A stretch of DNA of 64,000 nucleotides from Podarcis vaucheri (taxonomy: Eukaryota): assembly GCA_965113315.1 (NCBI GenBank), contig OZ220363.1. One strand, written 5' to 3'. The notes under the pieces are model-generated. The model was given only the letters and a program-made list of their open reading frames with translations, was not told the DNA's origin and ran no database searches. A program made the position numbers and the translations under genes. Positions 17,901 through 23,900 of the stretch are shown here, one piece after another. Numbering within the stretch: position 1 is the stretch's first letter; each line of letters starts with the position of its first letter.

Positions 17901-20900
17901 TCTGTTGAGTACCAGATCTGAACATTTTTTCCTCTATATTATAAACTCAGAACATTATTTATTTATTTGTTTGTTTGTTTATTAAATGATGTTTGAATCT
18001 TGCCAGAATGGTCAAATGCAGTTTTAAATACAAATACAAGAAAATCTAATCAGAACCAGCAGAAAACTCACATAAAAAACAGAATAAACGGTAATTGCAT
18101 GTTAAGATCCCCAGGAGCTTCCCAAAAAATAAAGACACAATTGACACGGATTTTAGTTTTTAGGTTATTGGCATAATTTTGGCCACAACTTTATTGATTA
18201 CAGATAGTGAGGGATTTGTTTAGGCATTGGTTCCCGACTAGCTGCACCTGACCACAGCAGGGCAGCACTGACGACTGGGCCCCACCATATTGTCAGTACA
18301 GGTAAACATCATGGGGGAGCAATGGTCCAGAATCAGACTCAAGCTCACCCCAAATGCTCCCAGGGACTCTTGCGTGGCCCTCCCCCCCTCCCTGAAAGGG
18401 GTTGACAAAAGCATGGTGAATCCCTGGATTCCTTTAACGGAAAAGCTTTGTGCATTGGAGGGGACAGGTATTCCAACCCCACCTCTGGACCACCTTGAAC
18501 CAATGCCTAACTGCCAAACCTTACAAAATTGTGACAATTTGCTATGCGGCAGGTGAAACCCAAGTGGCACCAGCCAATCAACCAAATGGGGAAATTCCTA
18601 CCAGGCCCCTGTCCCAAAACAGATGACCCATGACTGCATAGCAAGGTCATAGCAAGACCCTAAATATAGGGAGGGTGGGCGGGTGATCCGGTGCAGGAGG
18701 CGAAAAGAGGAAGCTCTATGCAATGTGCAGCGGTATATAAAGGTCCCTCAGTTAATACACAAAATTCCCCATTGGCCAGATTTGCCCAGCAACCGAGGGA
18801 CCACCAATCAGGGTTGTTGTGGCTATCCAATCGCTCCCACCCACACAAACGGTGAGGTCAGTCCTGATGGTCTCACTGCAACACGTGCCCTCTGAGGAGC
18901 ACTCAATTTACAAGAAAATCTCCAATACCATTAGAAAGCCACTGAAGTGCAACAGAACAGGACAGACTTCTCCTGACACCTAAACAAATGTTAAGAAGGT
19001 GCAAGGCAAATCTTTCTGGGGAGGGAGTTCCATATTGATACTACCAGAGAAAATGACATTTTAACTGGCTTTGAGAACAGGAAAACCTGGACAAGGGCCA
19101 ATCTTAACTGGCAGGCAAGTTTCTATGGGAGAAGGTAGTGCTTTGTTTCCAGGCCAAGTATTGAAACCGTAAAACCAATATTTTTAACTGATAACATAAA
19201 TCATTTTGCTGAAGATCTTTTGAACTGGTATAAAATGCTTGTAGCAGTTAACCACAGTTAGTATTCTGTCCACTGTGCTCTGCACCATCTGTAGTTTCAT
19301 TATAAATATATGCATTTCCCCCCTTTTGAAATCATGTGGTGAACACATTCCCTCCCTCCTTTTCAGAATAATTTGACATTTACAGGTACAATCAGTGGAG
19401 ATGTGTGTGTTTGGAAAGAACATATACTGAATCGAATTGTAGGCAAAGCTCACAATGGGCCTATATTTGCAATGTACACAACACTACGAGATGGCTTAAT
19501 TGTAACAGGAGGCAAGGAGAGGCCGTGAGTCTGGTTTTCTTACAGATACATTTTACAAATATATTAATGCATAAATGTGTTGAAGTAAATTACACTGTGG
19601 TAGTTCTACTTTTAAGTATATACAATTCATCATTTGTACATAAGTAAATTGACAGCCTAAACCTATTTATCTCTATTAGCTGTAGCAGAGCAAGTAGTGA
19701 CTTTTACTGACACAGCAACCATGGCAACACTTGTTAAATGTTAGAAAAATTCCCTACCTAATTATTTACAATGAGTAAAACAGGAAACTGAATTCAATGA
19801 TTTCACCTGTTTCCCACTAGTATTGCATGGTTTGCTGCTAGACTCAATCTTCTTTAATACTAATAAGCCTTTCAGAAAAATAATCATTTCAAAGTGAGTG
19901 ACTGACTTTAAGAAATAATCTTGTATTCTTTATGTTTTCCTATATTTTTACTGCAACAAAATGTATTATAAAGTGAGGCGTATCCTCAGTCATTTTCTCT
20001 TACATAAGAAAGAGTTAAGCATGTACTAGATCACGGGTGTCAAACACAAGGCCCGCGGGCCGAATCCGGCCCGCCAGACCTCGTCATGTGGCCCGTGTAG
20101 CCGCCAGCCCAGCCTGCCCGCTTCCCCCTGCGAGGCGGCGCTCTGTGGGCAGGGACGGGGGGCTGGAAGGTGGGCGGTGGAGAAAGCGAAGGCGCTCTCT
20201 TCCCGCGCCGTTACTCGGCCGGCCTGAGAGAAATTTCTGAGGTGGCGACGGCGGCCTTCATCCAGGCTCAGGGGCGGGACTTTGCCCTCCCGGCGGCCTG
20301 GAGCATCTGGAGCTGGGGCGGCTGCGGGACCCGCCAGGCAGCAGCAGCATCGGCGTCGGCGCTTCTTCTCCTTCTCCTCCTTCGTCTTGCTCGCCGCCGC
20401 CGCTCTCATCTTGCTCAAGGCAGGCCTGGAGCCAGGTCAACCCAGGCTTCGAGCCCGAGGAGGAGGTGGGCGAAGCGGCCAGGGCGGCTGGCGGGAGCGC
20501 GGCGGCGGGGCCCGTGCTGCAGATGGGCGTGGTGGAGTGGGGCCGAGGAGGGGCGCCTTCGCCCTTGGAGCCTGATGCCCGACGCCCGGGAAGGCCCGGC
20601 GAGAGCGGGAGGCAGCGGAGGCGCAGGCGGCGCGGTGAAAAGGAGGAAGGTGGAGGGGAAGGCGAAGGCCAGCGGCCTTGCTCTGCCAGAGGCGCCTCGA
20701 TGCCGACGCTGCATTTCCCTCACGAGGAGACGGGCGAGGAGGTCGCCTCGCAGCCGCCGCCGCCTCGCTGCCTTGCCTGGGCCAAAGGGATGGCGCACCG
20801 CTTGCGAGGTGAATCGCCTTTGATTCCCTTGTTGTCTGTTTCGGGGGCCTAATCCAGCCCCATCGGCAGTTTATGGGGTAAAAGCCTCAAAAAAAAACCT

Positions 20901-23900
20901 CAACAACTTCAACCCTAAAAAAAACCCTCAACAATTTCAATCCTAAAAAAGGCGCAACAACTTTGGTTGGCCCTCACAGCCCTTCACTTCATCAAATCTG
21001 GCCCTCCTTGAAAAAAGTTTGGGCACCACTGTACTAGATTATGTCTAAGATTAGGGGAATGAATACCCAAGTCAAGGAAGTGAAAAGTTGAGCACTCACG
21101 CTCTCACTGGCTAGCATATTAGCCTTAACTACAATGTGACATGAAATAGTTAAAATAACAGAAGCTTCTACAAAATAGTAAACATGTGTTTAACAACTAT
21201 GACAAATGTGGAAATCTAAAAATTACATACTCTTAAGTAAGCTAAAACCATTGCAAAATAGTTTGTGGATAGCAAAACTGACATAATATTGTATATTTTA
21301 AAATAGCGGTTTTAATTATTCATTTGTGAATCTCAACTGTATATCCATTGAATGAATGGAATATGGGATTTGAACACATGCATTTTACACTGAGTGATTT
21401 TATCTATTCTTTCTATAATGTTTCTTTCTTTATTTTCACTAGCTCAAAAGAAGGTGGAGCAGTTAAATTATGGGATCAGGAGCTAAGGCGGTGTCGTGCC
21501 TTCAGATTAGAGACAGGACAGATAATTGACTGTGTTCGCTCTGTGTGCAGAGGCAAAGTAAGTGCTGGTCTCCTTAAAGAGATGACAACATCTATCATGT
21601 TGGTTCATATTGGTTTTAGATCATCTCTGCTTATTTGTCAGCAACCTATCTTTTCTGTTTGTTTCTAACCATCACAACATGTATACTCTCAATCTTAGCT
21701 GTTAAAATTCTATTCAAATATTAGATAAGAAGAGCCTGTTAGACAAAAGGCTTATGTAGTCCAGTGTTCTGACTGTGGAGGTAGCATATAGCCATCAGGA
21801 TTAGTAGCTACTCCATGTAACTACTCCATGATTTTTGTCTAATCCCCATTTAAAGCCATTCAGATTGGTGACCTTCACAACATGTTGAGGAAGCATATAC
21901 GCATGTTGGCATTTTTGGTATTTAGTTTTTTTGTTGTGCCTTTCACTGCTGTTTCTTGACTTGGGCAATACTCTAGCAATATTGAGATCCTCTCTGCTGC
22001 ATGAAAGTACTGAGGACGGGAGAGGAAGAAAAGAGGAACACCGAGAGCAGAAAAGTGGCAGTTTTCACAACAGGAGAGGTTTGAACAAAGAGGGGATGGA
22101 GGAACACTGAAAGAGAAAAAGTGGTGGTTTAAAGCAATGTGAGAGATCTAATTAGATTGGAAAGGGAGCAACACTGAGGGTTATCTTTTTGTTCTTTAAG
22201 TTTTAACAAGCAGAAAGAACGAATGTGTCTACAACACAGAAGCACAAGCTAGCACCAAAAAGCTAACATGGATACAGCACAGTCTTTCCCAATTTCCTTC
22301 TTGCTCTACTCAAATCTTTCCCAGTGTTTAAAATGAGAATGTGTGTGCAAAGGGAGGCGGGCTGCAAAATAGAAGAGAGGAGGAGGTGGCATGGAAATGG
22401 GGATGGTCTGTGTGCAAGGGACACTTGAAAAGAGGTGGGAGAAGGCGGGTGGGGAAGGAGGTGGAGGTGAAAACCAGGCAGTGCAAAGGGGTGTGAAAAA
22501 CAAGGAGGGAGGAAGAGGCATGGAAATGAGTATGAAGGTGAAAAAAGGAGTACAAGAGGCTTCAGAAATAGGACTGGAAAGGTGAAAAGGGAGCTTAGTA
22601 GTTGCAAGGGAAGCTCATGGTTAACATGGGGGAAATAGTAGGAGGTTGGCAGTCAGAGTGAGCAAGGATCCTGCCCCCCTAGTATTTAATATTTTCATGA
22701 TTTCAACAATTCCTTTAGTGGAAATATGTTCATGATTTCTAAGTTACTATGCATAGATTCATGTTACCCCTCATCAACAGATGCTATTTTTAAAAATAGT
22801 TTTCATTAACTGAACATTGTTCCAGGGGAAAATTCTTGTTGGGACAAAGAATGCTGAAATAATAGAAGTTGGAGAAAAAAATGCAGCATGTAACATTCTA
22901 ATTAATGGTCACATGGATGGGCCTATCTGGGGACTAGCAACACACCCTTCTCGTGATGTTTTCCTTTCTGCTGCAGAAGATGGGACAGTCAGACTCTGGG
23001 ATATTGCTGATAAAGTAGGTATAAAAATTACAGTAAAACTATATAATTGTTTAGAAAAATTATACATTAAAAATAAATCCACTGAGAAAACTTGCACATA
23101 TTTTCTTTTAAATGTATTTCCAGGAATTAAGTAAACGTAAGAGCTAAAAATAAATCGTGACATAATCTTGCTATGCTATATTCATTGTACATAAATGGAA
23201 ACATTTAATTGTGCTTTCTTTTAAAAACCAATTCTCACAGAAGATGGTGAACAAAGTAAATTTGGGCCACGCAGCACGCACTGTGTCTTATAGTCCAGAG
23301 GGAGACATGGTGGCTATTGGCATGAAAAATGGAGAATTTATTATCTTGTTAGTGAACTCTTTGAAAATATGGGGAAAGAAAAGGGACAGAAGATCAGCCA
23401 TTCAGGACATCAGGTGAGATATCATGTTCCCTTACCTGCTATGGTTCTGGATTCTCTAAAAATTATATCCGCATCTTGTTGGATATGGTAGATGTGCATG
23501 CATGAGGATGCAGCATTAAGAACATAAGAGTATCCCTGGTAGATTAGACCAAAGTCCCATTTATGCCAGCAATCACTCCCCACAGTGGCCAACCAGGTGC
23601 CTATGGGAAGTCCACAAGGACATGAATGCGACAGCAAGGAGACATGAATGTGACAGCACTCTGTCCAGTCATGTCCCCAGCAAATAACTATTAATCTCAG
23701 GGTCATGGGTCATTCCTGTATTGCAGGGGGTTGGACTAGATGACTTTTATGGTCACTTCCAATTCTATGATTCTGGAAATTCACAGCCATCATGATCTAG
23801 TTATTGATAGCCTTATCCTCCATGAATTTGTCTAAACTCCTTTTTAAGGCCATCCAAACTGGTGGCAATCACAAGATCTTGTGTTAGTGAATGTACTGTG

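Follow-up and report, generated by a model that had tools for sequence, protein, structure and literature searches.

The closest described relatives of the element reported here are the Pack-TIRs of animals, in which host sequence lies between transposon ends with terminal inverted repeats (TIRs). The main text of PMC8277862 gives 370 of them in 100 animal genomes, 4 being multicopy and these having GC-rich cargo, and by its own account parents linked to transposable elements (TEs) may be missed. It describes Pack-hAT-N8_XT of Xenopus tropicalis (CAPSL 5' untranslated region, 291 bp, 3 copies). Here we analyse 64,000 nucleotides of Podarcis vaucheri DNA (contig OZ220363.1 of assembly GCA_965113315.1; the window), in which an intron of EML5 holds a hAT element of 1000 bp. 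We regard it as highly probable that this is a non-autonomous hAT carrying the front end of the polycystin-2 gene PKD2, present at 38 loci at least, and we take its copy in the EML5 intron to be a likely inert passenger. The capture of a first exon is real and well resolved and is of a kind already known; new are the scale, the range of cargo and the chimeric ends.

Like Pack-hAT-N8_XT as described in PMC8277862, the lizard pack combines hAT ends and GC-rich host 5' cargo with distinct target-site duplications (TSDs) and a distant donor. Unlike the animal Pack-TIRs of that main text, it has spread an entire first exon, splice donor included, to 38 loci; its left end is common to at least seven lizard cargo types; and one of its ends comes from a miniature inverted-repeat transposable element (MITE) that is still linked to the donor, an arrangement excluded by the pipeline as outlined there. 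The rice Pack-MULEs (Pack-type Mutator-like elements), in the portrait drawn by PMC5861414, likewise combine many cargos with a single family of ends, favour GC-rich sequence and stand as GC-rich islands in GC-poor flanks, but they have MULE ends, belong to plants and are shown to be transcribed, whereas the lizard packs are known here from sequence alone. Non-autonomous hobo-type hATs of Anolis (PMC3014272) resemble the lizard elements in their similar ends, differing interiors and recombination between families; their cargo, however, is genomic DNA with old TE pieces, described as TE-bearing filler, and "exon", "gene fragment" and "CpG" are absent from the main text of that paper. The Heli1Xen1 Helitrons of Xenopus laevis, as PMC12001565 presents them, also carry mostly 5' gene fragments (17 of 19), amplified up to 17 times, but are rolling-circle elements without TIRs or 8-bp TSDs. 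Our literature search found no report of a hAT carrying PKD2 or of lacertid first-exon packs, repeat databases, subscription journals and the supplements of PMC8277862 lying outside its scope.

Cargo, donor and copies of the element

The element and the two host exons around it are composed as follows (all on the + strand).

20032..21031, whole non-autonomous Pack-hAT, exactly 1000 bp, one of at least 38 PKD2-carrying loci in genome G000
20024..20031, left TSD TACTAGAT, with TA at positions 4-5 as in 29/29 full-length copies
21032..21039, right TSD TACTAGAT, a perfect 8-bp match to the left one
20032..20105, left arm, from a cargo-free hAT MITE of ~319 bp (MITE-A), 98.6% identical over 74 bp to L038
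20105..20272, captured PKD2 5' leader; ~240 bp of promoter retained in copy L019 are deleted here
20273..20808, captured coding part of PKD2 exon 1, codon 2 to exon end; a 7-bp deletion removed the ATG, and 178 codons are open
20809..20814, PKD2 intron 1 splice donor, GTGAAT (GTGAGT in the donor gene)
20809..20833, PKD2 intron 1 remnant; after 20816, ~150 bp are deleted that sister copies such as L006 hold
20834..21031, right arm, remnant of a hAT MITE of ~200 bp (MITE-B), 91% identical to L020 2624-2763, the same MITE copy as in PKD2 intron 1
20889-20950, 28-bp tandem repeat, part of the MITE-B right arm
19386..19524, EML5 exon preceding the host intron; it ends in phase 2 and runs on into the downstream exon in protein P0013
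21443..21557, EML5 exon that follows the host intron; P0013 passes from the upstream exon into this one without a break

The forward frame at 20241-20852 matches residues 43-199 of human polycystin-2 (PDB, E 5.8e-6) and, at 81% identity, residues 2-183 of the lacertid PKD2 protein P0002. All 11 protein matches of this frame are polycystin-2 by name or domain content, the segment aligns with polycystin-2 of human, turtle, fish and snake, and the similarity ends at LRG, followed by the GT of the exon 1 donor site. Judged by this predicted protein and its splice site, the cargo is the front of PKD2, from the 5' leader through exon 1 into the beginning of intron 1. The best protein matches of the cargo and of EML5 suggest a lacertid lizard as the source. 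An earlier note on this DNA had likened a frame of the interior to a signal peptide or anchor; that frame exists (20228-20575, containing LEPG), but it is offset by 2 from the PKD2 frame and has no Pfam match. The same note had placed the short tandem duplication correctly, although it belongs to the right arm and not to the cargo. The GC- and CpG-richness that it reported is evident at 20100-20850 (GC 0.71, 78 CpG, CpG observed/expected ratio (o/e) 0.84, the composition of a CpG island) against flanks with GC 0.35 and o/e 0.16-0.20, and this is the sole kilobase of such composition in the 64-kb window.

The note's proposal of a non-autonomous transposon with a captured promoter or first-exon fragment is sustained by the donor. 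PKD2 exons 2-5 lie at C28:16567158-16571536 of G000, and 2.4 kb upstream of them stands the single intact donor (L020), with a complete exon 1, a Kozak ATG GGGACCATGG and the donor site CTGCGAG/GTGAGT; it is the only one of 30 fetched loci without the MITE-A left end. The cargo of 29 copies differs from it by 6.5-9.7% substitutions, and a short stretch present in P0002 and in the packs is gone from the present-day donor, so that the capture predates some of the donor's own changes. The MITE-B copy in PKD2 intron 1 bears the TSD CTCTACCA/CCCTACCA. Two more small elements with 8-bp TSDs are found at the PKD2 5' end, at L020:1071-1304 in the promoter and at L020:2433-2575 nested in the intronic MITE, which makes the locus a repeated hAT target.

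Altogether 39 distinct loci on 16 contigs of G000 hold this sequence, namely 38 packs and the donor; the number of packs is a lower bound, probably near the total, from a DNA search that scored 40 of 2534 candidates, and a 23-base exon pattern has 33 exact matches, all inside the same 39 loci. The TSD is perfect in 27 of the 29 full-length copies, with a single mismatch in the other two, and 28 distinct TSDs occur among the 29; because the TSDs differ between copies, the PKD2 pack has transposed repeatedly. Contigs with the cargo are present in sequencing runs of three organism labels. The PKD2 packs nearest to functional are L009 (G000 C42:38676099), which retains the ATG, an open frame and a GTGAGT donor, and L019 (G000 C34:57623935), which retains the core promoter and the ATG yet is frameshifted.

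The 8-bp TSD and short imperfect TIRs starting with CA (CACGGGTGTCAAAC vs CAGTGGTGCCCAAAC) are those of a hAT; the ends of the element read CACGGGTGTCAAAC on the left and GTTTGGGCACCACTG on the right, and are inverted imperfectly over ~15 bp. All 29 TSDs fit NNNTANNN, with a central TA, and a central TA in the target site is a feature of the Charlie/Buster group, to which we take the element to belong, its transposase being known only from a C-terminal fragment. That fragment is in L049, a deletion derivative that shares the family's left end and encodes a transposase C-terminus in an open frame of 151 aa (L049:1661-2113); the frame has a Dimer_Tnp_hAT match (E 0.006) below the Pfam cut-off. 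The fragment has no match in the window, in keeping with the earlier statement that the interior lacks similarity to a transposase. The element also has the properties of a multicopy Pack-TIR, since host non-TE sequence with an identifiable parent lies between TE ends in several copies with distinct TSDs. The TE-unlinked parent described in PMC8277862 is, for the MITE-A ends, what the PACS, RFXAP and SORCS2 donors treated below provide, and the PKD2 donor, with MITE-B in its intron 1, does not. Pack-MULE ends have long TIRs and 9-11-bp TSDs, against an 8-bp TSD and a TIR of ~15 bp here; by analogy, the element would work like a Pack-MULE, but it is not one.

Assembly from two miniature elements

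Both arms belong to abundant families, MITE-A with 361 exact left ends in G000 and MITE-B with 306 exact matches. Intact packs carry the left TSD copy CTCTACCA of the intronic MITE-B, the donor's MITE-B is sister to the packs in a tree with 28 solo copies, and a 5-bp deletion is common to the donor's MITE-B and the packs. These common marks show that, as far as descent can be read from them, the right arm derives from the MITE-B copy still present in PKD2 intron 1.

The left side is best preserved in L019, which retains ~104 bp of the MITE-A arm and ~240 bp of PKD2 promoter, a piece that only L019 and the donor contain in the 40 candidates scored out of 92; the lineage of the window copy lost it at a short GCAGCC-like overlap. 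The left junction of L019, CTCTAGT-C-ACTAGAG, repeats as a palindrome the promoter's target site GACTAGAG, which a 234-bp hAT MITE occupies today; palindromes of this 7-1-7 form occur at 8 of 63985 window positions. Excision of hAT elements leaves hairpin ends, and their opening yields such palindromes. We infer a route in which excision of a hAT would have broken the PKD2 promoter at the hAT target site, the opened hairpin end would have been joined through a 3-bp microhomology (CTC) to a broken MITE-A left arm, transposase acting in trans would then have mobilised all sequence up to the right end of the intronic MITE-B, and later microhomology deletions would have trimmed the master copies. 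We hold this route, promoter break, joining and mobilisation with the intronic right end, to be reasonably probable. Three observations weigh against it: the hairpin footprint is one junction in one copy, and three of its seven arm bases are also part of the parent arm; the junctions of the PACS, RFXAP, SORCS2 and L057 packs have no palindrome and display plain microhomology or short filler; and no autonomous or full-length element was found that could be set beside the deletion derivative L049.

Composite transposition is the main rival to repair after excision, and we consider it possible at best. In such a scenario a whole MITE-A would have stood in an ancestral allele of the PKD2 promoter, the outer ends of MITE-A and MITE-B would have moved the gene front together (end bypass), and MITE-A would have been internally deleted later. 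The position of the left junction, in a hAT target site, and the right end, which is a whole MITE with linkage to the donor, agree with this, as does the end bypass described in the main text of PMC8277862, whose pipeline may miss such cases; the element at the promoter site today, however, is a different MITE of 234 bp, the MITE-A right end is kept in 0 of 29 packs, and the junction filler mirrors the target site, a better fit to excision repair.

The copy in the EML5 intron

The host gene is EML5: positions 19388-19522 of the upstream exon are 100% identical to lacertid and anole EML5, and the intron, in phase 2, falls at about residue 1633 of 1865 (P0013). A match of an EML5 exon to designer PPR proteins in the PDB was dismissed as a repeat artefact. 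The hAT with its perfect TSD in an EML5 intron was accordingly seen rightly in the earlier note, which also suggested that it could serve as an internal promoter for the last EML5 repeats.

The insertion is likely to be recent because its site is empty in two other samples and its nearest sister copy is 1.1% different. Contigs of X3 (another sample of the same organism label, with many flank differences) and X6 (another organism label) join 20021 to 21030, as an empty site would; a contig of X1 passes from the flank into the element, and X5 is not decisive. The window copy is without its ATG (the 7-bp deletion), the core promoter (~240 bp), ~150 bp of intron and the G at donor position +5. A splice that joins 20808 to 21443, where the next EML5 exon starts, would bring a phase 1 donor to a phase 2 exon, and the PKD2 frame would meet a stop after 14 codons.

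For the decay of the cargo we aligned 23 of the 29 copies (L021-L026, with internal duplications, were omitted). No selection was detected on the cargo among these, with the ratio of non-synonymous to synonymous differences (pN/pS) taken for 7 copies and ranging between 0.63 and 1.2 against the pack majority. Private CpG transitions number 56 on 195 sites, compared with 33 on 378 other C/G sites, a 3.3-fold enrichment (p 3e-8), so the CpGs are not undecayed as had been stated. At the level of substitution patterns these results show a cargo that decays neutrally, and the enrichment of CpG transitions suggests some germ-line methylation. We therefore regard the window copy as a likely inert, recently inserted passenger, probably without function. 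Against this stand the modest loss of CpG, o/e being still 0.81 as compared with 0.94 at the donor, the PKD2 frame that is open in the window copy and in 6 of its 8 closest relatives (L001-L009), and the ATG kept in L007-L009 (L009 also with a canonical donor), so that function of some copies is possible.

That the window copy acts as a mobile CpG island or an alternative first exon that leads into the final ~230-340 residues of EML5 appears quite improbable. The cargo does lie in sense orientation relative to EML5; its o/e is 0.81, its frame is open with three in-frame ATGs, and its splice donor has the GT. A promoter role is nonetheless unlikely because the original ATG and the core promoter are deleted, the donor is weakened at +5, the splice is out of frame and the insertion is absent in X3 and X6, and also because the cargo evolves neutrally and continues to lose CpG. 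The idea that the GC-rich interior belonged to the transposon from the start, or that PKD2 exon 1 derives from the element, can practically be discarded: the interior is common to 29/29 full-length copies and the family's right end is found at the PKD2 locus, but the parent MITE has no such interior, and the polycystin-2 matches from human to fish, ending at the exon 1 donor site, together with PKD2 exons 2-5 at C28, refute it.

Sister elements and what they mean

The first 30 listed of the 361 left ends, unselected for GC, were inspected. They comprise 14 short parent MITEs, 14 GC-rich interiors (5 with PKD2), 1 transposase fragment and 1 other insertion, with no clear AT-rich host cargo among those 30. 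Interiors of copies with the same ends, whose comparison the earlier note had proposed, are thus neither uniform nor free of host sequence: they vary and match host genes.

SORCS2 exon 1 (E 5e-7) is carried at 40 places, of which one is the donor L133; TSDs bound 17 of the 20 loci fetched, and there are segmental copies with a TSD in common. The SORCS2 pack, present at about 39 places, is antisense (L042, L051, L061, L105-L124; donor L133:2575-4190), and some copies near contig ends that share the TSD TTCTACGG resemble segmental duplicates. A first exon of the PACS family, with its splice donor, is found in 8 packs and the donor L101 (L094-L104); it has 2-4 bp of microhomology at both junctions and is assigned to the family level, not to a paralogue. 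The promoter and 5' coding exon of RFXAP (PF15289, E 1.5e-21) occupy 6 packs (L125-L130), with the donor L131. Two unnamed CpG islands have donors L234 and L235. All of these other-cargo donors lack MITE-A ends.

The first unnamed island, that of L054, is also carried by a second hAT family (ends CAGTGTTTCCCAACC, ~1375 bp; L179-L191, donor L234:5100-6065), in 13 of 25 fetched loci and with copies 98.6-99.8% identical (4 pairs tested); on this identity of cargo, it has evidently passed between two hAT families. The second, that of L057, comes from L235:5560-6064, near which a minus-strand ATG reads MGCCGSAASQ and then GTGAGT, possibly SLC44A1 exon 1; the L057 pack includes a second piece of ~85 bp that is present at 12 other places. 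A seventh cargo type (L062; L209-L233) is a GC-rich pack of ~1.3-1.4 kb at ~40 places. L226-L228 have the right end in 136-bp tandem copies, and L093 and L068 are further MITE-A-ended interiors, one island-like and one of moderate GC. Loci L236, L237, L132, L135 and L136 were left out of the locus analysis.

Because elements sharing a left end carry first exons or CpG islands of several genes, they form a Pack-MULE-like system in an amniote. CpG islands make up all 6 donors found (GC 0.68-0.80, o/e 0.78-1.02), compared with none of 104 windows in the flanks and none of 103 bins of the window, and we infer that open CpG-island promoters may be the preferred source of cargo. This bias is inflated, since GC-rich interiors were chosen for the donor searches, and no donor for the L062 cargo came up among the 40 scored of 53 candidates (23 of its 25 fetched loci are TSD-bounded packs); both points weigh against such a preference. 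It is a tentative and rather doubtful extension that the hAT MITEs of lacertids systematically take up promoters in CpG islands as well as first exons, in part by way of excision breaks in open promoters, and have left well over 100 cassettes of which some, such as L009 and L019, would be active and start chimeric transcripts.

Cut-and-paste capture and multiplication of gene fronts has been reported to be rare in animals, with 4 cases in 100 genomes in the main text of PMC8277862, and here one lizard end family gives at least seven cargo types, several of them at 30-40 loci. Copies of the packs can confuse annotation and read mapping at PKD2, SORCS2, PACS and RFXAP. Donors and junctions are still readable in the lizard system, and the question of why packs take GC-rich 5' ends is now testable in a vertebrate, as is that of whether a moved CpG island stays unmethylated, for which one island offers dozens of copies that are dated and in part polymorphic.

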